Positions 10,257 through 63,885 of a stretch of 64,000 nucleotides of DNA are shown piece after piece. Each line of letters begins with the position of its first letter. Position 1 is the stretch's first letter. A program made the position numbers and the translations under genes. Below the pieces are notes generated by a model. That model was not told the origin of the DNA. It ran no database searches and saw only the letters and a list, made by a program, of their open reading frames with translations. This DNA comes from Paracidovorax wautersii. GTDB taxonomy: Bacteria; Pseudomonadota; Gammaproteobacteria; Burkholderiales; Burkholderiaceae_C. The stretch is taken from contig WNDQ01000017.1 in assembly GCA_009912175.1 (NCBI GenBank), forward strand, positions 2,402 to 66,401, given 5' to 3'.

Positions 10257-10263
10257 GGCCGGA

Positions 10264-11184: not shown

Positions 11185-11265
11185 GAAAGCAGCGCTGCCA
11201 TGCGCAGCGGTGTGGGAAAACGGGAAAGAAGGCCCCGGCGGCGGCGCGCGGGGCCTTGGGGCTGC

Positions 11266-12816: not shown

Positions 12817-12909
12817 GGTTGAACTCCGAAAGAGGGAAGGGCGGTTGAAGGACAGGCTCTGGATGAAGAACGCCGCAGTCCGCCGTGGCGGCTGCAGTCT
12901 TGAAAAAAA

Positions 12910-14823
<1,914 letters not shown>

Positions 14824-14857
14824 CGAGGTCGAACGAAAGAGGGCGAGTGCGGTCGCG

Positions 14858-15850: not shown

Positions 15851-15899
15851 GGCGCGAGAAACGGGGCGTGAGGAGAGAGCGGGGCGGAACAGGGGGCGA

Positions 15900-16823
15900 T
15901 CAGCGCTCGGTGGCGGGTGTGGTGCCGCCGCCCGGCGCCAGTCGGCTGCGTTTGCTGTCGTGCAGCCAGGGCAGGACGGCTTCGGTCATGCGCGCGGCCG
16001 ACTTCACGGATTCCTTGACGCGGTGGGCGACGGCGCTGGTCAGCGCCTCGATCATTGCCAGCGCCGACGATTCGGAATTGGCCGCGTACTGGTTTTCGGT
16101 CTGCGCAAACAGGCAGACCTGGGCGTGCGGGACCAGCGGCGATTGCGGACCGTCGGTCAGCGCCAGCACGCCCACGCCGCGCTGGCGTGCGCCCTGGGCC
16201 AGCATGACGGTGTCGGTCAGGTAGCGCGGGTAGCTGATGGCCACCAGCAGGTCGTCGCCGGTCATGCGCGGCAGCAGGCGTGCGCCGTAGGAGGCGCCGC
16301 CCACGCCGGCCAGCAGGTGCACGTTGTCGCAATGGCCGTCGAGCCCGCGCTGCAGCAGGCCGGCCAGCCAGCCGCTGGCGCCAAAGCCCGCGAGGTAGAT
16401 GCGCCGCGCACCCAGAATGGCGGCCACGGCGGTTTCGCAGGCGGCGGTGTCGAGCGCCTCGCGGGTGGCGACGATGTTGCGCTGGCTTTCTTCCAGCGCG
16501 GCGGCGAAGACATCACGCACGCTGCTGGGCTTTTCGATCTTGATGCGCATCTTCTCGATGGGTGCCAGCATCGCCTCGAAGCCCTTGACCAGTTCCGAGC
16601 GCAGCAGCGGATAACCCTCCAGCCCGATGGCGCGCGCAAAGCGGTTGGCCGTGGCCACCGACACGCCCACGGCGGCGGCCAGTTCGTCGATCGGCATGGT
16701 CGCGGCCTGCAGCGGGTGCGCCAGCACGTAGTCGGCCATCTGCTGGTGCGCGCGCGTCAGCGTCGGCCGCGCGCGGCTGATGCGGATGGCGATGGAGGGC
16801 GTGTCGGGCGCGGTTTCGGGCAT
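15900..16823 (-). CDS. RpiR/MurR family transcriptional regulator (HTH + SIS domain)
   Basis: ATG 16823 chosen (MPETAPDTPSIAIRISRARPTLTRAHQQMADYVLAHP...). SIS-like GFGASG segment. The ORF extension to 16928 runs into an AT-rich promoter region. Confidence 0.75.
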   Translation of the reverse strand: MPETAPDTPSIAIRISRARPTLTRAHQQMADYVLAHPLQAATMPIDELAAAVGVSVATANRFARAIGLEGYPLLRSELVKGFEAMLAPIEKMRIKIEKPSSVRDVFAAALEESQRNIVATREALDTAACETAVAAILGARRIYLAGFGASGWLAGLLQRGLDGHCDNVHLLAGVGGASYGARLLPRMTGDDLLVAISYPRYLTDTVMLAQGARQRGVGVLALTDGPQSPLVPHAQVCLFAQTENQYAANSESSALAMIEALTSAVAHRVKESVKSAARMTEAVLPWLHDSKRSRLAPGGGTTPATER

Positions 16824-28723: not shown

Positions 28724-28799
28724 GCCGGTTTAGCTCAGTTGGTAGAGCACCCGCCTTGTAAGCGGTAGGTCGTCAGTTCGAATCCGACAACCGGCACCA
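28724..28799 (+). tRNA. tRNA-Thr (anticodon UGU), 76 nt with encoded CCA
   Basis: GCCGGTT acceptor stem, GCTC/GAGC D stem, anticodon loop CTTGTAA, T loop TTCGAAT, AACCGGC-A-CCA 3' end. The T stem has one A:C mismatch (28775:28785). An integrase gene follows directly. Confidence 0.9.
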
Positions 28800-28946: not shown

Positions 28947-29984
28947 ATGGCAACCCCAATCAAGACCGCCGCGGGCACGTGGCGGGTGCAGATCAAGGTC
29001 GGCGAGACGCGCGACGCGGCGACATTTCCTACAAAGCGTGAGGCCATTGAGTGGGCCGAGGCGCGCCGGCTGGAGCTTCGGCAGGAGCGGGGCGGCAAGG
29101 CGGCTGGCAAGGGGGCTGGCAAGACGCTCAAGGATGCCGTGGACCGGTACATGGAGGAAATCACGTCGACGAAGCGCGGCGAGAATTTCGAGAACACGCG
29201 GTTGCTGGCGTTTCTGCGCGACCCACTGTTTCCGAGCAAGAAGCTGATCGGCGATGTGGGGACCGACGACATGGCGCGGTGGCGAGATGGCCGGCAAGCG
29301 AAGGTGAAGCCGGGGACGGTGCTGCGCGAAATCACGATCATGACGCACCTGTTCGACGTGGCGCGGCGTGAGTGGCGGTGGATCAGCGCGAACCCAATGG
29401 ATGACATGCGGCGGCCGTCGAAGCCGGCGCACCGGGAGCGGGTGATTTCCGGGCCGGAGATCCGCCGGATGCTGCGCGTGATGGGCTGGAGCCGGCATAA
29501 GCCGGTGCGGTCAGCCGGGCAGGCGGTGGCGGCGTGCTTTCTTGGGGCGCTGCAGACGGGTATGCGCGCTGGCGAGCTGTGCGGACTGGAGTGGAGCGAT
29601 GTGCGGGCGAATTACTGCGTGCTGCACGATGGCAAGACCAAGACCGGCAAGGGCCGGCATGTGCCGCTGACGCCGGCGGCGCTGCGCAATCTGGAGTCGA
29701 TGCGCGGCTGGGACGATGCGACGGTGATGGGCATCCAGACGAAGAGCCTGGACGCGCTGTTTCGCAAGTACCGTGAGAGGGCGGGGCTGTCCGGCTTTAC
29801 CTTCCACGACACAAGGCATACAGCCGCTACGCGGATGGCGCAGCGGCTGCATGTGTTGGACTTGTGCAAGGTGTTCGGGTGGACGAACACGGCGCGGGCG
29901 CTGACGTACTACAACCCTTCGGCGGCGGATATCGCAGCGCGCCTTACTGGCGGCGATGCAGCTCCCATTCGACGATCTCGCTGA
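28947..29984 (+). CDS. int: tyrosine-type phage integrase
   Basis: 345 aa; ...RAGELCGLEWSDV..., HDTRHTAATRMA and LTYYNPS catalytic-domain boxes. Adjacent to the tRNA. Confidence 0.9.
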   Translation: MATPIKTAAGTWRVQIKVGETRDAATFPTKREAIEWAEARRLELRQERGGKAAGKGAGKTLKDAVDRYMEEITSTKRGENFENTRLLAFLRDPLFPSKKLIGDVGTDDMARWRDGRQAKVKPGTVLREITIMTHLFDVARREWRWISANPMDDMRRPSKPAHRERVISGPEIRRMLRVMGWSRHKPVRSAGQAVAACFLGALQTGMRAGELCGLEWSDVRANYCVLHDGKTKTGKGRHVPLTPAALRNLESMRGWDDATVMGIQTKSLDALFRKYRERAGLSGFTFHDTRHTAATRMAQRLHVLDLCKVFGWTNTARALTYYNPSAADIAARLTGGDAAPIRRSR

Positions 29985-38644: not shown

Positions 38645-39058
38645 TCAGCCCGGCGGGGCGGCGGGCGGGCCGCTGCCGGTGGTGTCCCAGTCGTTCTCGG
38701 GGGTGTGCAGCGCGGCGGCGTATTCGTGCGCGGCGGCTTCTTCGTCGGCTGTTTCGGCCAGGGCCAGGGCGAGCTGGCCGCGGCGGATGTGGCGCGACAG
38801 CGGCAGACGAATGTCGGCGGCCGGCGCGCTGGGCAGGGTGAGGGTGCGGGCGAATTCGAGCGTGGCCACGCCGCAGAAGCCGCAGCGCCAGTTGCGGCAC
38901 TTGTAGGTGATTTCGCGCATGGTGCGGCTCATGGCGCGGCTGTCGCAGGCGACGCAGCGGGTGCCGCAGTGCGGGCACTCGATGGTGATGCGCAAGTAGC
39001 GGTTGTTGGAGTCGGCAGCGGCATCGGCGCCGGGGTGGTCGACTGGGTGGGCGGTCAT
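38645..39058 (-). CDS. ogr: Ogr/Delta-family zinc-finger late-gene transcription activator (137 aa)
   Basis: ATG 39058. CPHCG-x...-CVAC...REITYKCRNWRCGFCG four-Cys pattern as in P2 Ogr, followed by a long acidic C-terminal tail. Confidence 0.75.
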   Translation of the reverse strand: MTAHPVDHPGADAAADSNNRYLRITIECPHCGTRCVACDSRAMSRTMREITYKCRNWRCGFCGVATLEFARTLTLPSAPAADIRLPLSRHIRRGQLALALAETADEEAAAHEYAAALHTPENDWDTTGSGPPAAPPG

Positions 39059-39249
39059 TGCGGTTTGCCTCCCGAGGTGGCCAGGCGCGGGCCGCGGCGT
39101 TGGCCGGTGATGTTTTCGGCGCCCTTGCGCAGGCGGGTCTTGGCCAGCCAGACGATGGCGTCGGACACGCTGCACAGCCCCTGCTCGCGGCGCACCCGGT
39201 CGAGCAGCGCGTGCTCGGCGTCGGAGAGGTGGATGTGGTGGTTCGGCAT
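39055..39249 (-). CDS. hypothetical small protein (64 aa)
   Basis: ATGA-coupled to ogr. HLSDAEHALLDRVRREQG is RHH-like. Confidence 0.4.
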   Translation of the reverse strand: MPNHHIHLSDAEHALLDRVRREQGLCSVSDAIVWLAKTRLRKGAENITGQRRGPRLATSGGKPQ

Positions 39250-40783: not shown

Positions 40784-40930
40784 AGCCTGGGCGGGCATTG
40801 CGGCGAGTCATTACTTTTTCGACTCGTGCTGCCTGTGCTGCTACTACTGGAGCCCATTGCGGATGGTGATTTCCGCGTTGGGGTGGATTGTGTGATGCGC
40901 CTGGGGATGGGCGCGGTGGGAGGACGAGGG

Positions 40931-41428
40931 ATGTTGGGTTCTTTGTCATTCGTCTACACGAATGCGGTTGGAGAAACAAAACAGCGACGCCTGACCAACT
41001 GGGGGGAGGTTGGCCACTACATCAAGGGATTCGACGAAACAGCCGGGAAGGTGCTGACCTTCCGTAAGGATCGCATCACCGAGTACATCGACGTCGATGA
41101 CATTCATGCCATCTTGGCAGATCCATACAGCAAGCCGCCGCCCGTCATCAGCAACAAGGCCGCGCCCGATTTGCGGCCTCATATCGTGTTCACAGGTTTC
41201 AGCGCTGCGCGGCGCGCAGAACTGGAGCAGATGGCGAGCGATGGCGGGCTTCGGGTGGTGAGGTCGGTCACCCAGACCTTGGTTTTCCTTTGCGGTGGAT
41301 CAAACGCTGGGCCGATGAAGCTTGAGAAGGCTCGGGCTCAGGGCGTTTACATCGTGGATGAAACGGCCTTTATTCAACTGGTTGCGACAGGCGTTTTGCC
41401 CGATGACGCGGTTGAGGCGCTGCAGTAG
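40931..41428 (+). CDS. BRCT-domain protein with N-terminal WYL/SH3-like beta module (165 aa)
   Basis: GGAGGACGAGGG ribosome-binding site before ATG 40931. C-terminal IVFTGFSAARRAELEQMASDGGLRVVRSVTQTLVFLCGG...KLEKARAQGVYIVDETAF is BRCT-like. Confidence 0.6.
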   Translation: MLGSLSFVYTNAVGETKQRRLTNWGEVGHYIKGFDETAGKVLTFRKDRITEYIDVDDIHAILADPYSKPPPVISNKAAPDLRPHIVFTGFSAARRAELEQMASDGGLRVVRSVTQTLVFLCGGSNAGPMKLEKARAQGVYIVDETAFIQLVATGVLPDDAVEALQ

Positions 41429-41890
41429 ATGTTGGCTTCAGTTTTCACTGCCGTGTGTTTGGCTGTCGGTGTGACCGATGGCGACACGATCAAGGCCCGT
41501 TGCGGCCAGCCTGGTGCCTATGAGCAGGTGACGGTGCGGTTCGGTGGAATCGATGCGCCGGAGCAGAAGCAGGCTTTCGGCCAGCGGGCGAAGCAAGCCC
41601 TTTCCGACCTTGTCTACATGAAGCCGGTGAAGCTGGATTGCTACAAGCAGGACCGATATCAGCGGCATGTGTGCAATGTGTCGACGGACGCGGCCGGGGA
41701 TGTTGGCGAGGCGATGCTGCGACTGGGCATGGCCTGGTGGTACCGGCATTACTCGAACGAGCAGACGCCAGCGGCGCGGGTGGCCTATGAAAAGGCCGAG
41801 GGCGATGCGCGGGCAGCGTGGCGTGGGCTTTGGAGTGACCCGCATGCGCAGGCGCCGTGGGAGTGGCGGCGGGTGCAGCGGGGCGGTTAG
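41429..41890 (+). CDS. thermonuclease (staphylococcal nuclease fold) with hydrophobic N-terminus
   Basis: VTDGDTI...VRFGGIDAPEQKQAFG...DRYQRHVC...MLRLGMAWWY...ARAAWRGLWSDPHAQAPWEWRR. The ATG directly follows the upstream TAG. Confidence 0.8.
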   Translation: MLASVFTAVCLAVGVTDGDTIKARCGQPGAYEQVTVRFGGIDAPEQKQAFGQRAKQALSDLVYMKPVKLDCYKQDRYQRHVCNVSTDAAGDVGEAMLRLGMAWWYRHYSNEQTPAARVAYEKAEGDARAAWRGLWSDPHAQAPWEWRRVQRGG

Positions 41891-41935
41891 GCCTTGCTCG
41901 AACAACAAGTTTTACAACGACGAGAGGAAATCCAC

Positions 41936-42274
41936 ATGGCTACAAAAGTCGCAATGCGTAACCCTAACAACGGCCTGCTTAAGAACGGGTTCTTTGGCTT
42001 TTCTTGGACAACGCTTTTCTTCGGGTTCTTCCCGGCGCTGTTTCGTGGGGACTTCATCACCTTCATTGGTGGATTTGTCATATCCATGATCATCGCGTTC
42101 CTGACGTTCGGTATTGGCGCGCTGGTGATCAGTCTTGTCTGGGCATTTATGTACAACAAGTACTACACGCGCAAGCTGTTGGCAGCGGGTTTTCGATTTG
42201 CCGATTCCGAAGGTATGAATGCCCAAGCGAGTGCTGCGCTGGGGGTGGATTACAGCACGCAGCAGCGCGCTTGA
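41936..42274 (+). CDS. small membrane protein (112 aa, 2 TM; DUF2628-like)
   Basis: GAGAGGAAA ribosome-binding site. MATKVAMRNPNNGLLKNGFFGFSWTTLFFGFFPALFRGDF...; markedly lower GC. Confidence 0.6.
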   Translation: MATKVAMRNPNNGLLKNGFFGFSWTTLFFGFFPALFRGDFITFIGGFVISMIIAFLTFGIGALVISLVWAFMYNKYYTRKLLAAGFRFADSEGMNAQASAALGVDYSTQQRA

Positions 42275-42297
42275 TTTGCAGAAAGAGGGCGTCCCAG

Positions 42298-42696
42298 ATG
42301 AACTATTTCAAAGCCGCCACGCTCGTGGCGTTGTTCGCAGCCGCAGCCGCAGCCGCAGCCGCAACGGCATCGGCGCAGACCTTGACCGCACAGCAAAAGA
42401 ATGCCGTGAGATCCGCCAAGCAGTACCTCAGCTTCTCGGGTTTCTCGCGGGCCGGGCTGATTCAGCAGCTTTCATCGGATGCTGGTGATGGCTACAAGGT
42501 TGCCGACGCCACGGCTGCGGTGGACAGCTTGACGGTCGATTGGAATCAGCAGGCCGTTCGGTCGGCGAAGCAGTACCTCAGTTTCCAGGGGTTCTCGTGC
42601 AAGGGGCTGATCAAGCAACTCTCGGCGAGCGCCGGTGACAAGTACACGGCGAGCGAGGCGACATATGGAGCGAAGCAGGCAGGGGCCTGCGATTAA
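42298..42696 (+). CDS. Ltp-family (host cell surface-exposed lipoprotein domain) protein, two tandem Ltp repeats, signal peptide
   Basis: AVRSAKQYLSFSGFSRAGLIQQLSSDAGDGYKVADATAAVDSL and AVRSAKQYLSFQGFSCKGLIKQLSASAGDKYTASEATYGA. Poly-Ala signal peptide ending ASA-Q. Confidence 0.7.
   Translation: MNYFKAATLVALFAAAAAAAAATASAQTLTAQQKNAVRSAKQYLSFSGFSRAGLIQQLSSDAGDGYKVADATAAVDSLTVDWNQQAVRSAKQYLSFQGFSCKGLIKQLSASAGDKYTASEATYGAKQAGACD
42337..42363 (+). repeat. (GCAGCC)x4+GCA repeat encoding the poly-Ala core of the Ltp signal peptide
   Basis: Four exact hexamers, the same unit as at 6623-6646. Confidence 0.9.
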
Positions 42697-49876: not shown

Positions 49877-50257
49877 TCAGGACTCCTGATTGCTGTTGGT
49901 GCTGGTTGCGATGAGTGCCGCGACGTCGGGGTTGGTGGCGAGGTAGGCGGCGAGTTTTTGGGCGGGGGTGGGGTCGGTCTGGGCGGTGGGGCGGGCGACG
50001 AGTTGCCAGGCGTGGCCGTCGAAGCGGGGCCATTGGGTGTCGGGCCAGTGGCCGAGCCAGAGGTAGAAGCCGCCGTCGGTTTGCTGGAGGGTGATCCAGT
50101 CGGCGGGCATGGGCTGGCGCACGGCGCCGGCGGGGAGGTGGTAGATGTCCTGGCCGGGCTCGGCGATGGATTCGAGGGCGGGCACGGCGTCGATGAACAT
50201 GCCGGCGGCGTCGAGCTGGTAGGCGGGGATGCGCGATGGGGTGGATGGCGTGGTCAT
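49877..50257 (-). CDS. gpG: tail fiber assembly protein (gpG position)
   Basis: ATG 50257, ATGA-coupled to the H stop; 126 aa; Trp-rich PADWITLQ...WPRFDGHAWQLV. Confidence 0.6.
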   Translation of the reverse strand: MTTPSTPSRIPAYQLDAAGMFIDAVPALESIAEPGQDIYHLPAGAVRQPMPADWITLQQTDGGFYLWLGHWPDTQWPRFDGHAWQLVARPTAQTDPTPAQKLAAYLATNPDVAALIATSTNSNQES

Positions 50258-51651
50258 AGCGCGCGGATGATGGGCACGTAGGCGCGGGTGTTGGGGCGGG
50301 CGTGGGTGCCGCCGCTGCTGGCCGTGGTGAAGCTGTGCGAGTGGCTGCCGGCGCTGTCGGTGTTGAAGCTGGTCATGAAGCGGCTGGATGTAGAGATTTC
50401 TTCGCCGCTTTGGCTGGCGTTGCCCTGTGCATTGGTGCTGCCGCGGCGCACGTTGTGGAAGTGGTCGCCGGCGCTCTCTGTGGTGCCGGTGTGGGTGTGC
50501 GCCTTGTTCTGGCTGTCGAGCGTGGTGCCGACGGCCATGGCGGTGTCTTTGCCGCGGCCCAGGTCGGCGTTGCCGTCGAACAGGGCGCGATCGTCGGGCA
50601 GGTTGAAGGTGTTGAAGCCGTCGCCAGCGCCGTAGGTGGTGCCGAGCACGGCGAAGAGGGCGGCGTAGGCGGTGCGGCTGATGGCGGCGCCGTTGCGGAT
50701 GAGCCAGCCGGTGGGGATGTTGGCGGTGGGCCAGTGCGATGGCATGCCGATGGGGCCGGCGCGGTCGGATTCGGCCTTGCTGTAGACGCCGAGGTTGGTG
50801 CGGGCGGTGGCGGCGTTGTCGAGGTCGGACAGATTCTTGCTGCGGACCAGCGGATCGGGTGCGTTGCCGGTGGGCTCGTTCTGCGCGGCGATGAGTTTGG
50901 TGCCGGCGGGCCAGGCGGCGGCCAGGGTGAGGCGGGTGGAAAGGTCGGGGTCTTTGGTCCACTGGTCGGCACGCAGGCGCACGCCGTCGGCGTACAGGGC
51001 CAGGCCGCGCGTGGTGGTGACGGTGAGGTCGACGATGGTTTGTCCGTCGGCCAAGGTCTGGGCTTCTTCGATGGTGTCGACGGTGACTTCGATGTCATCG
51101 GGGTCACCCCATTCGGTGTCGCCGTCGGCGTTGCTGTGCTTCTTGAGTAGCTGGCCGGTGGTACCGCCGGGGATGATGTTGGCGGCGGTGGCGTAGTTGG
51201 TGACCCAACCGAGCGTTGCGATGGTGACGTTGGGGTCGATCTGCAGGGCGACGGTTTGCGCGTTGCCAGGCTGGAAGACGATGCGCTGGGTGATGTCGCT
51301 GGCCGTGCCTTCGGTGGGCAGCGGCTTGTAGCTGTCGGGCAGGTTGCAGACGGTGTAGAGGTTGCCGTTGCTGTCGATCAGACCGCCTTCGCGGATCCAC
51401 CAGCCGCCGTCGTCAGCTGGCACGACGGCCTCGGCGATGTACTGGGTTTCGTCGTCGGGCGACTGGTAGATGCGGTTGATGGCGCCGCGCCAGCGCTCGC
51501 GCACCAGCTGGGTCATGTCGACGCTGGGGTCGACCGAGTTACCGCCGCCGTCGCCCAGCACCATGCTCACCAGCGTGATGGTGGAGCCGGTGGCCTGCGC
51601 CCGCGCGATTTCGCGCAGGCCGGCGGTGGTGTGGATGCTGGAGAAAGCCAT
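50254..51651 (-). CDS. gpH: tail fiber protein gpH with C-terminal phage tail-collar domain
   Basis: ATG 51651: MAFSSIHTTAGLREIARAQATGSTITLVSMVLGDGGG...WWIREGGLIDSNGNLY...SYKP is a P2 H-type N-domain. C-terminal WPTANIPTGWLIRNGAAISRTAYAALFAVLGTTYGAGDGFNTFNLPD is a collar domain. Confidence 0.85.
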   Translation of the reverse strand: MAFSSIHTTAGLREIARAQATGSTITLVSMVLGDGGGNSVDPSVDMTQLVRERWRGAINRIYQSPDDETQYIAEAVVPADDGGWWIREGGLIDSNGNLYTVCNLPDSYKPLPTEGTASDITQRIVFQPGNAQTVALQIDPNVTIATLGWVTNYATAANIIPGGTTGQLLKKHSNADGDTEWGDPDDIEVTVDTIEEAQTLADGQTIVDLTVTTTRGLALYADGVRLRADQWTKDPDLSTRLTLAAAWPAGTKLIAAQNEPTGNAPDPLVRSKNLSDLDNAATARTNLGVYSKAESDRAGPIGMPSHWPTANIPTGWLIRNGAAISRTAYAALFAVLGTTYGAGDGFNTFNLPDDRALFDGNADLGRGKDTAMAVGTTLDSQNKAHTHTGTTESAGDHFHNVRRGSTNAQGNASQSGEEISTSSRFMTSFNTDSAGSHSHSFTTASSGGTHARPNTRAYVPIIRAL

Positions 51652-51715
51652 GCACCCAATGTGCCGAAGGTTTCGCGCGGGCGCGAGGGGCGGGGCGCGT
51701 GGTGGTGGCGGGTAC
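51652..51715 (-). promoter_or_regulatory. copy 2 of a ~60-nt element also found upstream of gene V (putative Ogr-dependent late promoter/leader)
   Basis: ~85% identical to 60443-60504. Contains the dyad TCGCGC-CC-GCGCGA. Abuts the H start codon. Confidence 0.5.
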
Positions 51716-53322
51716 GGGAAGAGGCAAAAAGGAACCCATTTGCCTCGGTCGCCGAGGGCCTCGCTGGCACAGCGGCCGGCGGCTACTTCTCGGTGTTCCG
51801 GAATCCGGCAACCGGTCAAGCGTATACATCAATTTATCGGGTCGATCTGGTCGAGGATGTGAAGACCGCTGTTGAGCTGGACCGGTGGATCGATGGCAGG
51901 CAAGTCGAACAGTTGCAGGCCGCACTCCCCACAATCGACAGCGTGGAGGACATTGCCTTTGGCGTCGTCGACAAAGACGGCCGCCGGACCTGGCTGGAAT
52001 CAGACAAGGCCGGCCGCCCCACCGAACGCGCCACAGACCTGATTGCCACAGCAGTGGATATCAAGGGCCGCGCGGCCACTGCAGTCCAGGATGCAGGCCT
52101 GGCCCCCGGGCCGCCCGCTGCCGAATCCCTTGCATTTGCTGTGGTCGATGCGGAAAACCGCCGCACCTGGCTGGAGGCCGGCAAGGATGGGCGCCCCACG
52201 GCCAGGGCCGCCAGCCTCATTGCCGAGGCCGTCGACATCGATGGCGCGGCCGCGGCGGCGGTTGATACCGCTGGCCTAGGCAACGGCGATGGCGAGGCAT
52301 CTGGCTTAGCCTTCGCCGTCTGTGACAAGGATGGTCGGCGCACCTGGCTGGAGGCCGGTCTCGACGGCAAGCCCACGCTGCGCGCCGCCTCACTGCTCGG
52401 GTCCATGCTCAACCTGCCCAGCGAGGTCCCTGCTCAGTACCGAAGCACCTACGCCGCTACGGCAGTCAAGATCGCCTGCGGCCCCGACATCATCTGCTGG
52501 GGCGACTCCATGACTGCGGGCGCCGGCGGCAATGGCACAACGTACCCCAATGTGCTGCAGTCCCTGCTGGCAGCTGCGGGCAGTAGCGCTACGGTGCGTA
52601 ACGCAGGCGTCGGCGGCGAATCATCTGTCACCATCACCGCCCGCAGCGGAGCCAACCCCTTCATCCTTCTGCCCACCACGGGCGAGATTCCGGCAAGTGG
52701 TGGCGTCACGGTGTCGCTGGAGGCGATCAACGGCTATGCACCGGCTCCCCTGTTCCAGGGCACCGGCACGCCGGGCACATCCTTCAGCGGCTACCTCGCG
52801 GGCGTGCTGGGAACGCTTAGCCGATCCGAGACGGATGGCGTGAGCACGTACACCTTCACGCGGTCCACAGCGGGCGCCGCCGTCAGCGTGGCACGCCCGC
52901 AGCCCTTTCGCACACTGTTTTCGGAGGCCCGGCGCGAGGACATCCAGATCATCTGGATCGGTCAGAACGGCCCCGGCAATGCCCGCGCGATCCAGGATGC
53001 CAGGGCCATCATCAATCACTGCAAGGCGCTGGACAAGCGCTACCTGGTCATCTCCAAGCCGGGCGGCACCTCCGCTGCGGATGTCGACGACGCGGCATTC
53101 TTCGCCGAGTTCGGCCGCCGCTTCATCCCGATCCGTCAATACATGGTCCGCTTCGGCTTGGCCGATGCGGGCATCGAACCCACAGAGGGCGATCTCACCG
53201 ACATCGCTGCGGGGACGGTCCCGCGTTCGATACGGGTGGACTCAGTCCACTGGATCGCCGCTGGCTACACGATTCTCGGAAACCTCATTTATCAACGCCT
53301 CAACGAACTTGGATGGGTATAA
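51661..53322 (+). CDS. SGNH/GDSL hydrolase-domain protein with three 59-aa tandem repeats (start uncertain)
   Basis: FASVAEGLAGTAAGGYFSV tail-fibre-like N-motif. 3x [IL]AF[GA]V[VC]D..RRTWLE..G.PT.RA. SGNH blocks ICWGDS, NAGVGGE, IGQNG, DSVHW. GTG 51661 is the first in-frame start outside gene H. No ATG before aa ~384. Confidence 0.55.
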   Translation: MPKVSRGREGRGAWWWRVREEAKRNPFASVAEGLAGTAAGGYFSVFRNPATGQAYTSIYRVDLVEDVKTAVELDRWIDGRQVEQLQAALPTIDSVEDIAFGVVDKDGRRTWLESDKAGRPTERATDLIATAVDIKGRAATAVQDAGLAPGPPAAESLAFAVVDAENRRTWLEAGKDGRPTARAASLIAEAVDIDGAAAAAVDTAGLGNGDGEASGLAFAVCDKDGRRTWLEAGLDGKPTLRAASLLGSMLNLPSEVPAQYRSTYAATAVKIACGPDIICWGDSMTAGAGGNGTTYPNVLQSLLAAAGSSATVRNAGVGGESSVTITARSGANPFILLPTTGEIPASGGVTVSLEAINGYAPAPLFQGTGTPGTSFSGYLAGVLGTLSRSETDGVSTYTFTRSTAGAAVSVARPQPFRTLFSEARREDIQIIWIGQNGPGNARAIQDARAIINHCKALDKRYLVISKPGGTSAADVDDAAFFAEFGRRFIPIRQYMVRFGLADAGIEPTEGDLTDIAAGTVPRSIRVDSVHWIAAGYTILGNLIYQRLNELGWV

Positions 53323-53324
53323 CC

Positions 53325-54185
53325 ATGAGCCGCTTCATTCGCCTCGACATCGAGCTGACCGACAAAACCGCCCCGAAGGTGCCGACCATTGACCCCATCG
53401 AAACCGATGGAAGCATCTTTTTGTGGGATGCGGCCATTGCGTCCCTTGAGGCCGTTCCCGCCAACGGTGTGCATATGGCCAACCAGCTATTGGATCTGGG
53501 GCAAGCCACAACGGGTACAGACACTTATTTCTTTGCGACATCAAACCCCTCGACTCCAGCTGCGTCACTGTTCACGGAAGTCACCGCCAAGGGCGGCATC
53601 CATGTCCTGCCCTCGCAAGTCAATCAAACCGGGTCGAACGAGGCCTGGCGTATGGCCTCTAACAGTAATCTGACCGCTTGGCTCAACAGCCACCCGGACA
53701 AGTCTCTGTATGTCAGCGTGTGGCGGCGGATCACTCGCGCAAAAGTCGCCGGAAAAATCAGCAGCACGTTCCATCAGGCGATGAACACGACGAACTATCG
53801 CTGGCACATGCAGGGAGGAACACGGCTCTATCCTGAAACGATCACCGAGCTTCGGAGCACCCCTGCCGGGTCTGATGAGCTGTCCAGCAACGTGGGGCAG
53901 CCGAGCATCCGCAATGGCCGTGTGGACGGCAGCCAGGGCACAGGCGTGACCAGTGTTTCATATCCGGTGGAGCTGGGGTCAGGCACATTCGGAGCGTGGG
54001 CGGGAACCGCCTTGAATTCGTCCCCCGGCATGGTCATCTACCGCCTTTACCTCGAAGACCTCGATCAATCGGGCCGCACCTACGAAGAGGTGGACGCCAT
54101 CGACTATGCGCTGTTCCAGGCCGCATTCGCCGAGGGCGGGAAGTTCCATGGGGATACCTGGACGGATCCGGCGACGTTCCCGTGA
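53325..54185 (+). CDS. hypothetical protein (286 aa), lower GC
   Basis: ATG 53325, 2 nt after the upstream TAA: MSRFIRLDIELTDKTAPKVPTIDPIETDGSIFLWD... No family recognised. Confidence 0.5.
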   Translation: MSRFIRLDIELTDKTAPKVPTIDPIETDGSIFLWDAAIASLEAVPANGVHMANQLLDLGQATTGTDTYFFATSNPSTPAASLFTEVTAKGGIHVLPSQVNQTGSNEAWRMASNSNLTAWLNSHPDKSLYVSVWRRITRAKVAGKISSTFHQAMNTTNYRWHMQGGTRLYPETITELRSTPAGSDELSSNVGQPSIRNGRVDGSQGTGVTSVSYPVELGSGTFGAWAGTALNSSPGMVIYRLYLEDLDQSGRTYEEVDAIDYALFQAAFAEGGKFHGDTWTDPATFP

Positions 54186-54212
54186 GCTATTCTTGCCGCA
54201 TTTGGAGGTTGC

Positions 54213-54467
54213 ATGTCTATCGATGACACCCTGTGGATACGGTACACAAAGGGCGGCAAGAAGATGCTCGCGCTTATTGATCAACCTGCCCCTATGTCGA
54301 ATCAGGCGCGGCGGGGCGCTGCACTGTCCCAGTTGCTGCGATCGCATCCAAACGTTTTTGGGTGCGAGAAATTGGAGGTTCTGGAGCGCCTTGCCGCTGA
54401 AATGGGCTACACCGATATCACGGTCGGGGTCGGCACGCCGCCGAGGCTGAACGATCAACAGCCGTAA
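54213..54467 (+). CDS. hypothetical small protein (84 aa)
   Basis: GGAGG upstream of the ATG: MSIDDTLWIRYTKGGKKMLALIDQ... No family recognised. Confidence 0.4.
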   Translation: MSIDDTLWIRYTKGGKKMLALIDQPAPMSNQARRGAALSQLLRSHPNVFGCEKLEVLERLAAEMGYTDITVGVGTPPRLNDQQP

Positions 54468-54579
54468 CGGCACCATAGGGAATCAGCACAGCCCGCCGGA
54501 TGGCTGTTAGATTCCGTCCGTCGCGGTCCAAGCGGTAAACGCCCGCTTTCTCCCTCCCTCCTCCGTGCCTCGACATTTG

Positions 54580-54601
54580 GCCCGCCTCGTGCGGGCTTTT
54601 T
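54580..54601 (+). terminator. terminator between the convergent plus-strand cassette and the 1059-aa gene
   Basis: GCCCGC-CTCGT-GCGGGC followed by TTTTT. GTGCGGGCTTTT is repeated again at ~54625. Confidence 0.55.
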
Positions 54602-54641
54602 CTTCACAGCACGCGAACGATTGTGCGGGCTTTTACTTACC

Positions 54642-57600
54642 TTACAAGCGCGCAACCCGCTCAATAGCCGCGCTCAGGATCGGTGCGATGCCGCGCCGGA
54701 CCGTCGCGCTCAGGTGCACAGAATCGAACAGGATCGATCGCGGGTAGAGACCCGATGCAATGTCGGCTTGGTCCTGTGCATATCCACTCGCTGACGGGTC
54801 AGTGATCCCGTATTTTGCGACCGCCGGCTGAATGTCCACGACATGCACCGATCCGTATTTCGCGGCGATTGCGTTATACAGGTTGGTCATGTCGTTGTAG
54901 GTAGTGGTGTCGACAAGGCCAGCAATCTGCCCATTGCGAATCCACAGCCACCGGTTGTGCCCAAGCGCAGCGACGATCTGTGCAATGTAGTCCAGTTCGA
55001 TTGCATACTGCCCGTTCGTGTGGTCGTTCGGCGAGCCATCCCACATCACCAGCGTATGCGGAAGACGTGCGGTATCGCTCGTGATCCGGGTGACCATTTC
55101 GGCCATCGTGGACCCGCCGACGCCGGTGTTTACGACCGTATAGCCGAGGTCCTCCAACATCAGCCCAATGCCCGTGGAGCTGTTGCCGCTGTAGCTGTCG
55201 CCTTCTGGCCGGACGATGGTCTTGATGCTGCTGGTTCGGCGCTTCATCCACGCCAGCGATTCGCAGCCCGACAGGATGCGGACCGAGCTGATCGTGCCGC
55301 CGAAAGCCTCGCCGGTATAGCTGCGGCCGATTCGGAAATTGTAGAAGCCCACGCACCCCACGAGATCGATTGCCGCGCCCTCCCCATTCACCGCGCCCAT
55401 CATCTGCGTGCGGCTCAGGCCGGCGGCGATTTTCATCGTTGCCCCGGCGGCCACGGTTCCGATCTGAACATCAGTCGCCACTGCCACACTGCTGCCATAA
55501 GCGACGTTGTGCAGCAGATAGACCGAACCTCCACTGCGCAGCTCGATGCGCCACCGGTGATACTCGCTGCCGATGTCGCCCTGCGCAATTACCTCGGTTG
55601 TCTCCGGCAGCGCGGCCGGAGCAACGCATTCCATCTCCAGCGTCATGTTGCCATTCGGGAAGCTGAGAGCGGGCCACACCTCGTGTAGTTGCGGCACGCT
55701 CCAGTAGCTCGTGCGCACCGCCGTGATCTTGCCGCCCACCCACGCCTGACCAATGATCGGGCACCCGATGCACGACAGCGTGCGGCCCGTCGTATTGGCC
55801 GCAAGCGCACTGCTGACGCCGGTGCCAAGCGCTGCATTTGCGTTGGAGATCATGGCGCGAGCGGATGCCGAAGAATCAGTGTCTTTAGCATACAGCGACA
55901 GCTGCACGGCTCGGCCCGCCATTCCTACCAGTCGATGCGAGAACGACCCGGGCGACGTCGATGTTCCAAGCGCCAGCACGCCGTCCGTGATCGTTCCCGA
56001 GGCGTTGGTGACAGTCTCGAACTCGGACATCGAGCTGATCAAGTTGTCGTTGGACACATAGCCGTCCAGCGAGTACGTGTCGCCCGAAATCGAGCCGCCA
56101 GCTGCTGCAAGAAGATCTGACTGCGTTGGGTAGAGCGTCCCGTTGAAATAGTGCACACCAGCAGCGCTGACGAAATACGGGGCGCATGCAGAGTCAGCGC
56201 TTGGCAGCAGCAAGTCGTCGACCGGTCCGGTCACCGTAGTACCCGCAACAAGCCCAGCAGCCCTCATCGCGTGCTGCAGCCCAGCGACAAGCGGTGCAAC
56301 GCTTCCACCGGCGAGCGCAACGCGGGCATTGTCAATGTTGGCCCGCACAGGCACGTAGCTGTCACCCATGTCCGGCAGCAGCACAACGGATGTGATGTAT
56401 TTCGACGCCCACGGGACTCCGCCATCGGATGCCAGGTTGATCGTATTGACGCTGGCCAAAGCCGAGCGCAGCAGGCTTGACGTGCCGCCCGCATAGACCA
56501 CTGCGATTTTGTCGGAGGTTCTGCTGCCAATGTCTGTGATGTCGATGCTGACCGCATCAGCGGAGCGGGTGCCGATGCACGGGCTGGACGCTACCGCTCC
56601 GGTCTCAACCTGGGCATGCCATATGTTGATCCCAACCGTTCCGCTGGTCTTGGTGTAGTTGCGGTCAGCGTACGTCGTGCCGGATGCACCTTGCAGCAAG
56701 ATCGAGCAGGTGGCTATGCTGACAGCGGTAAACGTCACAGATGCGCGATACCAGCCGTTTGCCAGCGCCTCGACCGCTACGGTGGTTCCGCTGACGCCGG
56801 CCGCGAGGGTGATCGTGCCGGCACTCAGGTCCACCGCGCCGCAAGCCTCAGCAGACATCCCCGCACCGCTGACACGCAGCATTGCAGCCGGACGTCCGCC
56901 CAACTTGAAATGCACGGACGCGGTGTATTGCTGCCCTGCGGCCGGCGTGAACGACCACTGCAGTACACCCTGGGATGCACTCTCGACGATGCTGTACGCC
57001 CCCGAAGAGGTGCCATTTGGCGTGGTGCCCGAGTACGCGGATACCGTGGCGCTGGGGCTACCGTAGGGGCTCCAGGAAGTGAAGGCGCGTGGGTATGTGC
57101 ACAAATTGGTCGCCGCGCTCTCGATGATCGCGCCACGATCCGTGAATCGCAGTTTGTTGGCCGCAAAGGTCTCGTAGACACCTGCCTTTGTCAAAGCCAG
57201 AGCCTCAGTCTCCCGCGAAACCACAAACTGCACGAAGTCATTGGCATCGGCATGGTGCTCAGTTCCAAGCCGGAACCGGCCCTCCGGAAAGTTGAACATC
57301 AAGCCGGAAGAAACAAACGCCGCGATCTGCGCTCCATCCTCGTAACCCAGATCGCTGGCTTCTCGCACCGACAGCGCTAGAGCCGCATCGCTGCCTGAAA
57401 TATCAGAAACCGTGGCCTTGACGGCCTTGACCTCCCACCCATCAGCCCACTGCCAGGCGAACACCAAGCCATCACCGACGCGCTTGAAAACGGATGCATA
57501 CGCTAGATCGTCCGTCGAATTCGGCAGGATCGTGCACAGCTTTCCGTCCTCGACGCCGGTCGTCTGATCGAGGGCCATGGCCTTGGTGGCAAATACGTTC

Positions 57601-57821
57601 CCTTGTGCCGCAACGAGCTGCGCTGCGGCTTCTGCTTTCTCCTGGGCCTCCAACACGATTCCCACTGCCCCTGAGTTGCGCAACTCTTCGTTGATCTTGC
57701 GCAGGTTGGGCATGGTGCCGGACTCGGTTTCGATGTCGCCGGCGGGGTCGTTGATGAATTTGTGTAGGGTGTCGACGCTTTCGCCGAAGGGCGCGACTTT
57801 GCCGTCCAGGGGTGAGGTCAT
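54642..57821 (-). CDS. 1059-aa tailspike/side-fibre-like protein with C-terminal SGNH esterase domain
   Basis: ATG 57821 is ATGA-coupled to the gpI stop, the slot held by H in P2. The N-terminus is unlike gpH. C-terminal blocks EGDSYSG, NTGVGGS, WDGSPND, FDSVHLS. The ORF-track extension to 58196 overlaps gpI and is Arg/Pro junk. Confidence 0.7.
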   Translation of the reverse strand: MTSPLDGKVAPFGESVDTLHKFINDPAGDIETESGTMPNLRKINEELRNSGAVGIVLEAQEKAEAAAQLVAAQGNVFATKAMALDQTTGVEDGKLCTILPNSTDDLAYASVFKRVGDGLVFAWQWADGWEVKAVKATVSDISGSDAALALSVREASDLGYEDGAQIAAFVSSGLMFNFPEGRFRLGTEHHADANDFVQFVVSRETEALALTKAGVYETFAANKLRFTDRGAIIESAATNLCTYPRAFTSWSPYGSPSATVSAYSGTTPNGTSSGAYSIVESASQGVLQWSFTPAAGQQYTASVHFKLGGRPAAMLRVSGAGMSAEACGAVDLSAGTITLAAGVSGTTVAVEALANGWYRASVTFTAVSIATCSILLQGASGTTYADRNYTKTSGTVGINIWHAQVETGAVASSPCIGTRSADAVSIDITDIGSRTSDKIAVVYAGGTSSLLRSALASVNTINLASDGGVPWASKYITSVVLLPDMGDSYVPVRANIDNARVALAGGSVAPLVAGLQHAMRAAGLVAGTTVTGPVDDLLLPSADSACAPYFVSAAGVHYFNGTLYPTQSDLLAAAGGSISGDTYSLDGYVSNDNLISSMSEFETVTNASGTITDGVLALGTSTSPGSFSHRLVGMAGRAVQLSLYAKDTDSSASARAMISNANAALGTGVSSALAANTTGRTLSCIGCPIIGQAWVGGKITAVRTSYWSVPQLHEVWPALSFPNGNMTLEMECVAPAALPETTEVIAQGDIGSEYHRWRIELRSGGSVYLLHNVAYGSSVAVATDVQIGTVAAGATMKIAAGLSRTQMMGAVNGEGAAIDLVGCVGFYNFRIGRSYTGEAFGGTISSVRILSGCESLAWMKRRTSSIKTIVRPEGDSYSGNSSTGIGLMLEDLGYTVVNTGVGGSTMAEMVTRITSDTARLPHTLVMWDGSPNDHTNGQYAIELDYIAQIVAALGHNRWLWIRNGQIAGLVDTTTYNDMTNLYNAIAAKYGSVHVVDIQPAVAKYGITDPSASGYAQDQADIASGLYPRSILFDSVHLSATVRRGIAPILSAAIERVARL

Positions 57822-58504
57822 AGGTCGGTGGGGATGGAGAGGTTTGCGGGCATGGCAGCGACGATGGCGTTGACGGTGTCGACGGCTTCGCCCGTGGCGT
57901 CGTAGCCGTTGACGGCGCCGTCGATCATGAGATCGAGGGCGCTGGTACCGTCGAGGTAATGGGGGGTGCCGTCGCTGACGGTGGCGGTGGTGCCGGTGAG
58001 GGCGATGCTGGCCATGGCCAGGCTGTCGGTGGAGCGGATGGCGATGTCGACGCCGGCGAGGTGGGAGCGGAGGTTTTTGTAGCGCTCTGCGACGTTGCGG
58101 ATGGTGGCCAGTTGCTGCTGGTTGAATCCGAGCTGTTCGGCCTCGATGCCCAGGCGGAAGGTGTAGGGATCGGCGGCCGGGGTTTGCTGATACCACTCCT
58201 GCACGGTGGCCTGCAGGCCCATGGCGGTGATGGCGCTTTGCACGGCGCCGTAGGTGCCTTTGTAGCGCTTGACTTGGATGGATTGGGCGATGACGTCGCG
58301 CTTGACCTGGGGGGTCCAGGTGTCATCCCATTCGTCGACGGCGTAGGCGTAGGCGAGCCAGGGGAGCAGGGCTTCGGGGCAGGTGTAGGGGTTCCAGACG
58401 CTGCGGATGGGCGCGGGGATGTCGCTTATGTTGGCGACGACGAGGGCGGCGGCGCGGTCGAGGTCGGTGGCGTTGGGGGGCAGGAGGGTGGCGGCGTTGG
58501 TCAT
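57818..58504 (-). CDS. gpI: baseplate protein gpI
   Basis: 228 aa; LLPPNATDLDRAAA...WNPYTCPEALLPWLAYAYAVDEWD...KRYKGTYGAV typical phage tail protein I. Confidence 0.85.
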   Translation of the reverse strand: MTNAATLLPPNATDLDRAAALVVANISDIPAPIRSVWNPYTCPEALLPWLAYAYAVDEWDDTWTPQVKRDVIAQSIQVKRYKGTYGAVQSAITAMGLQATVQEWYQQTPAADPYTFRLGIEAEQLGFNQQQLATIRNVAERYKNLRSHLAGVDIAIRSTDSLAMASIALTGTTATVSDGTPHYLDGTSALDLMIDGAVNGYDATGEAVDTVNAIVAAMPANLSIPTDL

Positions 58505-59750: not shown

Positions 59751-60442
59751 GCGCCGCCCCCGGGTGCATCGGTGTTCTGGCTGCCGCGTTCGATGCCGCC
59801 GTGCGTGTGGCTGGACAGGCTGATGCCGGCGGCGATGACGTCGACGGTGGTTTCGATGGTGCCGGTGATGACGGCGGATGCGCCGCCGCCTTCGCCGGCC
59901 TGGCCGGTCATGCCGGACTGGTAGGCGAACGGTCCGCGCACGGTGCAACTGCCGAGGATGTCGGTGTGGGTGGCGTCGAGCGTGGCCAGGTCGGTGATGA
60001 CGCGGACTTCGGCCGGGGCGGTTACCGTGGCCTTGCCGCCAGCGGGCAGGGTGACGGCCATGGCGTGGGCGGCGTGGTCGTATTCGACGACGGCGCCGTC
60101 GGGGTATTTGGTGACGGTTTTGCCGGGCGAGTCGCTGGGGGCCGGATTGGATGCGCTGGAGACGCCGGGCAGCACGTAGGCGCCGCCGAGTTCGCCGCTG
60201 GGGGAAAAGCAGATGACGGGTTCGCCGACGGTGGGTGGGTTCCAGGTTCGGGTGTCTCCGGCGCGCAGCTCGATCCAGGGCCGCCAGTCGGTTCGGACGC
60301 CTGGGCTGTCGTCTTCGCCGTCGACCAGTTGCACGCGGACGAGGGCGGGCACGGTGGTGAGGTCGACTTCGGCCACGGTGCCGGTGCGCACGATGTTGTG
60401 CAGGCGGCGCAGCAGGTCGGCGAAGGGGGCGGGCGAGTGCAT
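59747..60442 (-). CDS. gpV: baseplate spike/assembly protein gpV
   Basis: 231 aa; LLRRLHNIVRTGTVAEVD...RTDWRPWIELRAG...THGGIERGSQNT pattern. Confidence 0.85.
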   Translation of the reverse strand: MHSPAPFADLLRRLHNIVRTGTVAEVDLTTVPALVRVQLVDGEDDSPGVRTDWRPWIELRAGDTRTWNPPTVGEPVICFSPSGELGGAYVLPGVSSASNPAPSDSPGKTVTKYPDGAVVEYDHAAHAMAVTLPAGGKATVTAPAEVRVITDLATLDATHTDILGSCTVRGPFAYQSGMTGQAGEGGGASAVITGTIETTVDVIAAGISLSSHTHGGIERGSQNTDAPGGGA

Positions 60443-60504
60443 GCCCCGAATGTGCCGGGGCTTTCGCGCGGGCGCGAGGGGTGGGCGATGTGGTGGCGGC
60501 GGGG
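60443..60504 (-). promoter_or_regulatory. copy 1 of the ~60-nt element, at the position of the P2 P_V late promoter
   Basis: Lies between the S stop (60522) and the V start (60442). Dyad TCGCGC-CC-GCGCGA. No Shine-Dalgarno before the V ATG. Confidence 0.5.
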
Positions 60505-60521
60505 ACTGATGCCGGGTGGTA

Positions 60522-63062: not shown

Positions 63063-63275
63063 TCAGTCCCACAGGTTGATGGTGGCCACGGTGGGCTGCG
63101 AGGACGGCATGTCTGGCAGCACGACGGCCTGGCCGATGGGCAGGGTGGGGCCGAGGTCGGCCAAGCCGGGGTTGAGTTCGTAGACGGCTTCCGTGACGCC
63201 GGCGGTGGTGCCGAGGTGGCGCAGGCAGAGCAGGTCGACGGTGTCGTTCTGCTGGGCGATGACGGTGGTGGCCAT
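63063..63275 (-). CDS. gpX: tail protein X (gpX, LysM-like)
   Basis: ATG 63275: MATTVIAQQNDTVDLLCLRHLG...VYELNPGLADLGPTLPIGQAVVLPD typical gpX. Confidence 0.8.
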   Translation of the reverse strand: MATTVIAQQNDTVDLLCLRHLGTTAGVTEAVYELNPGLADLGPTLPIGQAVVLPDMPSSQPTVATINLWD

Positions 63276-63772
63276 CAGATCAGTTCCACGGCGAGGCGGG
63301 TGGTGCCGATGATGTCGCGGATGGCCCAGGTGGCGTCGCGGCGATGCTGTTCGGCCTGGGTGTCGCGGTTTTCTTCCTGATCGTCCTTGCGGGCACGGCC
63401 GGTGGTGTCGTAGTCGCTGTAGCGCTCGATGAGGTTGGCTTTGGCGTGGCACTGCACGGCGCGGGTGAAGCGCTGGACGTGGACGGATGTGCCGTCGACG
63501 GTGGCGGCGGGGACGCTGGCGAGGGTGGCATGGCCTTCGGCGATGCGCTGGTCTGCCCAGGCCTGGAGTTGGGCGATGGTGGCTGCGATGGCCTCGACGA
63601 CGGCGGCTCGCAGGCGTGGCGGGGTGGTGGTGCCGTCGAGGCGGACGGCGTCGCGCATTTCGGCGAGGTCGATGGCCGGCCAGAAGGCGCCGGCGGCGAT
63701 GGTGCCGAGCGGGGCCGGGTCGCTGGGCGGCGTGGTGCGCACAAGGGGCGGGGCTGCTGCGATGAGGGACAT
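63275..63772 (-). CDS. gpL: head completion/stabilisation protein gpL
   Basis: ATG 63772 (or 63838): ...FWPAIDLAEMRDAVRLDGTTTPPRLRAAVVEAIA...ERYSDYDTT... typical P2 L. Confidence 0.75.
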   Translation of the reverse strand: MSLIAAAPPLVRTTPPSDPAPLGTIAAGAFWPAIDLAEMRDAVRLDGTTTPPRLRAAVVEAIAATIAQLQAWADQRIAEGHATLASVPAATVDGTSVHVQRFTRAVQCHAKANLIERYSDYDTTGRARKDDQEENRDTQAEQHRRDATWAIRDIIGTTRLAVELI

Positions 63773-63885
63773 GGCTTGGGCTCGGCGGGTGGATAGGTGG
63801 GCGGTGGCCGTGGTGCGTTGTGGTGAGGGCTCAGCCATTCACGCGGCACCACGGGCCGCCCGGCACGTGGGGGTGCTGGGTTGCG

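Follow-up and report, generated by a model that had tools for sequence, protein, structure and literature searches.

A putative receptor-binding protein module, inverted and without an anchor, in the tail region of a P2-like prophage of Paracidovorax wautersii

The DNA considered here (the window: 64,000 nucleotides of Paracidovorax wautersii, contig WNDQ01000017.1 of assembly GCA_009912175.1, positions 2,402 to 66,401) carries a P2-like prophage at 29-64 kb in which two tail genes, gpI and gpH, lie 6.2 kb apart. The interval between them is most likely a hypervariable receptor-binding slot located between two late transcription units in a P2-like lineage of the Burkholderiales. Judging from the relatives recovered, this lineage would normally carry two sets of receptor-binding proteins (RBPs), one a protein coupled to gpI through a conserved N-terminal anchor and the other the canonical gpH/gpG fibre. 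In the window the slot contains the gpI-coupled protein (RBP-A) and, on the opposite strand, three genes (RBP-B, p290 and p84) that appear to form a complete but anchorless RBP module, inverted and with its own terminator. The explanation favoured here, to which an even chance is given, is that this module was displaced in an inversion-type swap at the joint of anchor and body, and is now silent.

All six genes of the P2 series V-W-J-I-H-G are present with typical domains, in P2 order and on one strand; the tail genes as a whole occupy the minus strand at 44-60.5 kb. Given the distance between gpI and gpH, the six are not contiguous under one promoter. The same arrangement is found on two more contigs assembled from other sequencing runs, so that a one-off misassembly is excluded. 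The G+C content at third codon positions (GC3) is 0.69-0.78 over the whole interval from the gpI stop to the leader of gpH, compared with 0.87-0.92 in V, J, I, H, G, FI and T. An initial annotation of this DNA had noted a lower G+C content from about 53.3 kb on; the interval is indeed distinct, and the difference is not confined to the part beyond 53.3 kb. The 10.7-kb region around it gave no match by megablast to GenBank phages.

The first gene of the interval is translationally coupled to gpI. The gpI stop (57820-57818) overlaps the RBP-A start codon (57821-57819) as ATGA, as the initial annotation had described. RBP-A (54642-57821, minus strand) is a predicted fibre or spike of 1059 amino acids (aa) with an N-terminal anchor, a neck, a β-rich central region and a C-terminal SGNH esterase domain. 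It has no gpH-type N-terminal domain by Pfam, which agrees with the earlier statement that its N-terminus is unlike that of gpH. The anchor (codons 1-75, 57597-57821) is 47-70% identical to the N-termini of post-gpI proteins with different bodies in L001, L016, L013 (protein P0123) and L105, and 32-36% identical to those of P0003, P0029 and P0030. When the anchor alignment was searched against the JGI metagenomes no match was obtained, and the GTDB genomes returned only a Comamonas prophage.

A possible partner for the anchor is found in gpI itself. This baseplate wedge protein (57818-58504, minus strand, 228 aa) matches PF09684 (E=7e-46) over residues 8-146 only. Its C-terminal tail of about 50 aa is specific to the lineage and is kept only in phages with the anchor-RBP. 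The tail (57818-57970, residues ~180-228) follows the pattern DGTPxYxDG..ALDL..DGAVNGY...IPxDL, ending at the stop codon, in the window and in L001, L013 and L016; it is missing from the distant gpI proteins of L002, L003 and L010. The tail is possibly a docking partner of the RBP-A anchor.

At the other end of RBP-A, residues ~851-1059 (54645-55271) contain the SGNH blocks I, II, III and V, read in translation as GDSYSG, GVGG, GSPND and DSVH. The match to PF13472 (E=4.5e-4) is below threshold, while hhalign to the SGNH-B family gives 92% probability and BLAST to members of that family reaches E=6e-8. The SGNH ending proposed by the initial annotation is therefore moderately supported as a prediction. 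Between anchor and esterase there is little to compare. Residues 199-434 match phrog_5939 ('tail protein'), and tblastn against phages recovers only a central domain of about 230 aa, in unrelated (rV5-like) phages. Among 5.8 billion proteins a single true homolog was found, P0122, at 36% identity. RBP-A is thus a near-orphan, with a non-catalytic part of about 800 aa that is nearly without homologs. An AlphaFold2 model built from the two-sequence alignment had a pLDDT of 34 and was unusable.

P0122 was considered as a second anchorless copy and rejected, because its N-terminal part is present on the contig upstream in the same frame, across one TAA codon. That codon lies between an N-terminal coil and the body (L012, 1-210, a metagenome contig of 46% GC) and could reflect a pseudogene, a sequencing error or a recoded stop.

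The far side of the interval is bounded by a sequence that occurs twice. An element of about 65 nt, resembling a late promoter, lies 5' of the gpV ATG (60443-60506, minus strand), and a second copy lies 5' of the gpH ATG (51652-51715, minus strand). Taken up to the respective ATG, the two form a 67-nt direct repeat with 82% identity (51649-51715 and 60440-60506). The window has exactly two copies of the 20-nt core CCCCTCGCGCCCGCGCGAAA, where 0.08 would be expected. The leader is kept before both gpV and gpH in L001, L013 and L016 as well, that is, in four phage types. It reads ..GTACCCGCCGCCACCAC..CTCGCGCCCGCGCG..GGCACATTGGGTGC and then directly into the ATG; there is no Shine-Dalgarno site, and a -10-like CACATT stops 6-7 nt before the ATG. 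Possibly it is a late promoter that depends on an activator and whose mRNAs are leaderless or nearly so. Rfam gave no match to it or to anything else in 49.5-61 kb.

In P2 a late operon begins with gpV. Because the gpV-type leader also precedes gpH, the simplest reading is that gpH heads a late unit of its own, and the interval from the anchor-RBP to this leader would therefore be a gap between units. The initial annotation had placed genes on the wrong strand in the middle of a late operon. The strands are right; the genes appear to be located between two units. The gpH gene (50254-51651, minus strand) encodes a tail fibre of 465 aa with PF12571 (E=7e-46) and the collar domain PF07484 (E=5e-19), 55-74% identical to gpH of the relatives. 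Coupled to it is the gene in the gpG position (49877-50257, minus strand), assigned to tail fibre assembly by its position and by 46-58% identity to the post-gpH gene of the relatives; it has no Pfam match. The pair of canonical gpH and following gpG is thus as first described. RBP-A and gpH are two different RBP genes, one of them with a predicted esterase domain, which also bears out the earlier proposal.

Relatives were found by searches with gpI, the RBP-A N-terminus and the leader motif. Three further phage types were recovered: a prophage of Comamonas sp. BIGb0124 (L001, the same as L017), a metagenomic contig (L013), and an IMG/VR phage (L016) of which five contigs, L105-L108 and L116, are copies. 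They share one layout, in which gpI is ATGA-coupled to a large protein, followed by variable filler, the leader, gpH, gpG and FI. The first ~55-115 residues of these large proteins are 47-70% identical to those of RBP-A and the remainder is unrelated; one protein has 1157 aa, one has 672 aa with a SASA acetylesterase domain, and one has 1024 aa, also with a SASA domain. Since all recovered relatives of the lineage have gpI, the anchor-RBP, filler, leader and gpH, the second RBP is a trait of the lineage. This contradicts the view of the initial annotation that an insertion has split one V-W-J-I-H-G operon. In none of the recovered relatives was a comparable inverted module found. One-stranded relatives had been named at the outset as a sign that the strand calls in the window might be wrong; the relatives are one-stranded, but the calls are correct, and the window locus is the odd one out. 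In L002, a more distant phage from Roseospira, gpH comes directly after gpI, so the anchor-RBP must have joined the P2 plan at some point.

The contents of the slot vary among these phages. In L001 the stretch between anchor-RBP and gpH leader (14300-16000) contains same-strand cargo of 43-47% GC, including a protein with an MqsA-like antitoxin domain, and the slot seems to be a general cargo site. L013 has a LamG/concanavalin-like protein (2127-2900; PF13385, E=2e-4) downstream of its SASA RBP, and in L016 another acetylesterase-type (SASA) RBP of the lineage is found at 10001-13075. An esterase fibre with a lectin-like partner may be a recurring design. The LamG-like partner of L013 (257 aa) is not significantly similar to the p290 family (E=0.12).

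The cargo of the window is of another kind. The initial annotation had correctly called three ORFs on the plus strand, of which the first, the RBP-B body (51730-53322), encodes a probable SGNH-repeat tail spike of about 530 aa that matches phrog_11419 ('tail fiber', E=4e-71). Its 177 homologs are mostly 500-770 aa long with diverse N-terminal anchors, and the profile of the family matches the tail spike entries 9sij/9sim in the PDB (E=1e-10). Upstream of the catalytic domain RBP-B holds three repeats of 177 nt (59 aa), which TRF missed on the DNA and which were seen by a repeat search and in translation. PF13472 scores 29.4 bits, under the cut-off of 32.9, and the SGNH blocks fall in invariant columns of the homolog alignment. 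Blocks I (GDS), II (G), III (GxN) and V (DxxH) are thus found in both RBP-A and RBP-B. An N-terminal domain of the kind used for virion attachment by SGNH RBPs is present in RBP-A only.

What RBP-B lacks is a beginning. It can be aligned to its homologs only from the neck motif NPFAS (51733) onward; the homologs have roughly 60-200 additional N-terminal residues, very diverse and of variable length. In the window the gpH leader lies 7-15 nt upstream of this motif, and the repeats are not preceded by an ATG in frame. The possible GTG and TTG starts in this frame show Shine-Dalgarno pairing that is weak or wrongly placed (for the best GTG the core is 1 nt from the start codon), and they either add residues read from the antisense strand of the leader or remove the conserved neck. 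Gene callers disagree on the start, choosing GTG 51661 (553 aa) or GTG 51859 (487 aa). Anchor, ATG and usable Shine-Dalgarno site are all missing from RBP-B, whose body is intact.

The second gene, p290 (53325-54185, plus strand, 286 aa), starts 2 nt past the RBP-B stop, so that its translation probably depends on that of RBP-B. It matches phrog_18370 (E=9e-36) and is, by homology, a partner of SGNH-type RBPs. An AlphaFold2 model shows a β-sandwich (pLDDT 65) with weak jelly-roll and lectin matches (TM 0.3-0.4), a hint of such a fold and not an assignment. The third, p84 (54213-54467, plus strand), is an orphan ORF of 84 aa with the strongest Shine-Dalgarno site of the region (GGAGG, -10 kcal/mol). 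Pfam and PHROG gave no match for it, a search of 1.8 billion representative proteins gave one homolog (48% identity), and elsewhere the conserved pair does not include it. By direct reading no signal peptide is evident in any of the three translations. An intrinsic terminator follows (54579-54607, plus strand), consisting of the hairpin GCCCGC-CTCGT-GCGGGC (54579-54597) and then TTTTTCTTC. This hairpin had been described as a terminator shared by the convergent genes. The structure is there; it is not symmetric, and because the T-run is on the plus strand alone it is the terminator of the cassette.

RBP-B and p290 travel together in other phages. In five contexts (L007, L008, L010, L018, L019) a homolog of RBP-B closes the tail module and a homolog of p290 comes directly after it; L019 differs in that the fibre before the p290 homolog is a different one. 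The hosts include Pseudacidovorax (L007, a siphoprophage), Pseudomonas (L008, a Mu-like prophage), Caulobacter (L019) and Pseudomonas helleri (L010). In all five the pair is oriented with the tail genes, and the gene that comes directly 3' of the last large tail fibre gene shares 32-38% identity with p290 along the entire length of the latter. The SGNH protein and the 286-aa 'unknown' of the initial annotation are thus not miscellaneous cargo but a pair of RBP genes conserved in the tail modules of phages. A close parallel is the P. helleri prophage, where V-W-J-I is followed by P0029 (652 aa, an anchor joined to an SGNH-repeat RBP) and then by a partner of 296 aa. The RBP body is 46% and the partner 34% identical to their counterparts in the window, the slot after gpI is the same, and the N-terminus of P0029 belongs to the same class as the window anchor (32-36% identity over ~45-50 residues). 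That prophage has the module co-oriented and fused to its anchor; the window has it inverted and without one, the anchor there being joined to an unrelated body. The P. helleri arrangement appears to be the un-inverted form of the module in the window.

The two places at which the window departs from this arrangement share a short sequence. Site R, GGCACAAGGGAACGTATTTGCC (57588-57609, minus strand), is at the anchor/body joint of RBP-A; the codon for Asn75 starts at its central AA. Site L, GGCAAAAAGGAACCCATTTGCC (51723-51744, plus strand), is at the 5' edge of RBP-B, 7 nt from the gpH leader; the side of it that belongs to body B reads ...CCATTTGCCTCGGTCGCC. Together they form a 22-bp inverted repeat with 18 of 22 positions matching, a match that was reached by 5 of 500 codon shuffles, and the site pattern occurs only these two times in the window. 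With its flanks, site L is a 12+2+12 dyad, GAGGCAAAAAGG-AA-CCCATTTGCCTC, that scores 10/12; of the 63,974 positions in the window only 10 score as well. Site R scores 7/12. The central AA opens an Asn codon in both copies, so an exchange at this point would stay in frame. Codons ending in A or T are enriched inside both sites. The necks of A and B show no significant protein likeness (26% identity, E=0.23).

The site has not left a wide trace. It is not carried by the homologous joints of L010, L001 and L016, it has no match in IMG/VR, and in GTDB genomes (596 Gb) five single matches were found against a rough, back-of-envelope chance expectation of about four. The idea of a widely used recombination site was dropped on these numbers. 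Nor was a recombinase of the expected type found. No ORF in the 64-kb window that can be considered real has the serine invertase motif YxRxS(T/S)xxQ; tblastn of the window with Hin gave nothing better than E=3.7; a Pfam screen for recombinases in 20 prophage ORFs returned the tyrosine integrase only; and the head region of the prophage, read on a Logan contig from another run, contained no recombinase. A protein in which the anchor is fused to body B was not found in the set of 5.8 billion. One contig from a different run (L005) spans both sites, and it has the orientation of the window.

Displacement of the module is preferred to an active switch because of this absence of an invertase, the chance-level frequency of the site, the lack of an anchor-B fusion, the orientation of L005, and the lack of an inverted module in the relatives. 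The RBP-B module would once have been the distal half of the fibre to which RBP-A belongs, or an alternative to it, and would have been parted from the anchor by an inversion-type exchange with breakpoints at the repeats 51723-51744 and 57588-57609; its 5' end coincides exactly with the joint of anchor and body. It would now be translationally silent and could serve at most as a reserve for recombination events to come. The late transcript that starts at the gpV element would cover V, W, J, I and RBP-A. RBP-A would then dock on the baseplate through the anchor, possibly by way of the gpI tail, and bind a surface polysaccharide from which the SGNH domain removes acetyl groups. A classical fibre would be supplied by gpH and gpG from their own element.

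Several features speak against such a history. None of the three plus-strand ORFs is disrupted, the catalytic blocks of the SGNH domain have been kept, and p84 has a strong Shine-Dalgarno site. A relic silent for a long time should decay, so either the event was recent or the genes are used. A simple two-gene inversion predicts a remnant of a second anchor beside site L, but none was found there. Finally, the dyad quality of site L hints at a site recognised by a protein and not a mere scar. Two other explanations stay alive because the ORFs are intact and the left dyad is so good.

The first of these, unlikely on the present evidence, is that the cassette is expressed alone, from an unrecognised promoter and a GTG start, to give an anchorless soluble esterase and its lectin-like partner outside the virion. 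For example, these could modify the surface polysaccharide of the lysogen to block superinfection, or be released at lysis. The intactness of the ORFs, the plus-strand terminator and the strong p84 ribosome-binding site would all fit, as would the acceptance of GTG starts for RBP-B by gene callers and the presence of expressed-type cargo (the MqsA-like gene) in the same slot of L001. However, no sigma-70-like promoter was found anywhere in 49.5-61 kb, and only 7 nt lie between leader and site L. The poor starts, with their junk residues or truncated neck, and the lack of an evident signal peptide point the same way, and in five other contexts the pair belongs to a tail module.

An active host-range switch of the Mu G-segment type is more doubtful still. 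Here the segment 51735-57597 would be inverted between the two dyad sites by a recombinase supplied in trans, so that anchor codons 1-75 are fused to body A or body B; the B state would place body B, p290 and p84 in the late operon. The architecture is what such a switch would require, with one constant N-terminal segment, two convergent alternative bodies of which the second has no start of its own, and short inverted repeats exactly at the in-frame joints. The rank of site L among the ten best dyad positions, the A/T-ending codons in both sites and the intact ORFs of the silent half can be added on the same side. Against these stand the poor dyad of site R and the evidence that favours displacement: no serine invertase in the window, the Pfam-screened ORFs or the recovered head region; the site missing from IMG/VR and near chance in genomes; no fused anchor-B protein; the orientation of L005; and relatives without an inverted module. 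In its most novel form, which is given the same low probability, such a switch would work with a crossover site not described before (GNGGCAAAWRGG-AA-...) and with a recombinase whose gene lies elsewhere in host or phage, so that two different fibres, each with a polysaccharide esterase, take turns on one baseplate anchor.

An explanation along the lines of the initial annotation, a single recent insertion of lower G+C content in which the 1059-aa RBP and three unrelated genes split V-W-J-I-H-G and all four are functional, fits the distinct composition of the interval and the direct gpI-gpH succession in Roseospira, but is the least probable of all, since the addition is old and lineage-wide (anchor, gpI tail and gpH leader are conserved in four phage types) and the plus-strand genes are another RBP module without its anchor and not unrelated to RBPs.

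The rest of the prophage is that of a P2 relative. Its left end is marked by tRNA-Thr (TGT) at 28724-28799 and a tyrosine integrase gene at 28947-29984, and the host genes adjoining this end, beside the tRNA-Thr integration site, are sspA-like, sspB and mscL. An ABC ATPase encoded in the flank shares no more than 81% identity with any species representative. The early region contains a gpA-type replication gene and an Ogr/Delta-like zinc-finger gene (38645-39175); the head genes lie outside the window. Between gpD and the early genes is a plus-strand cargo block (40826-42696) with a BRCT-domain protein, a staphylococcal-nuclease homolog and an Ltp-like surface lipoprotein, the last from a family linked to superinfection exclusion. 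For the ORF at 63275-63838 a look-up gave no record.

Three things are new here: the two-RBP P2-like lineage with its conserved anchor and duplicated leader, the near-orphan RBP of 1059 aa, and the preserved inverted, anchorless module bounded by joint-site repeats, with no invertase found. If the module was displaced as proposed, the locus shows how temperate phages exchange parts for host recognition, with donor and recipient halves kept side by side: a fixed baseplate anchor carries a new esterase body, and an earlier or alternative body, complete with partner and terminator, lies inverted alongside with breakpoints at the anchor/body joint. A lineage that would routinely have an acetyl-esterase fibre on gpI in addition to a classical gpH fibre bears on the prediction of host range from prophage sequence, and the anchor/body joint would be a natural point for engineered RBP swaps. 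Should the segment prove to invert, it would represent a new recombination system for host-range switching.

Modular exchange of N-terminal anchors and invertible fibre segments are both well known. Invertible tail-fibre segments occur in phage Mu (the G segment, with Gin), P1 (the C segment, with Cin) and e14 (Pin), and similar ones in the P2-like prophages Fels-2 and SopE-phi. The window resembles those of Mu, P1 and e14 in having a constant N-terminal fibre segment shared by two opposed, convergent sets of distal genes, the second without its own start, and in having short inverted repeats in frame at the joint of constant and variable parts. It differs in that no cognate serine recombinase adjoins the segment and no invertase is found in the visible prophage, in that the repeats are only 18/22 identical with one poor dyad, and in that no second orientation of the locus has been seen in contigs or the protein set. 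The two halves are also asymmetric: body A has no partner genes and body B has two. A moron or lysogenic-conversion cassette offers another comparison; the plus-strand genes have the terminator and deviant GC3 of one, but their first gene lacks a credible start and the search for promoter-like sites found none.

RBPs with an SGNH esterase are represented by gp63.1 of E. coli phage G7C, an O-antigen deacetylase, and are common in Klebsiella and Acinetobacter prophages, including Peduoviridae (PMC13123978, PMC12115436, PMC8471582). Deacetylation has been documented for G7C gp63.1 and for SGNH RBPs of Klebsiella prophages (PMC13123978), and such RBPs are already known in P2-like prophages (PMC13123978, PMC12115436). 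RBP-A and RBP-B are like these proteins in that both contain or end in a predicted SGNH hydrolase domain; they differ in the nearly orphan non-catalytic part of RBP-A and in the 59-aa repeats before the catalytic domain of RBP-B. With respect to the operon of P2, the window has the same six genes in the same order and on the same strand. In contrast to P2, its I and H genes are 6.2 kb apart, gpH has a gpV-type element of its own, and an extra anchor-type RBP is coupled to gpI throughout the lineage.

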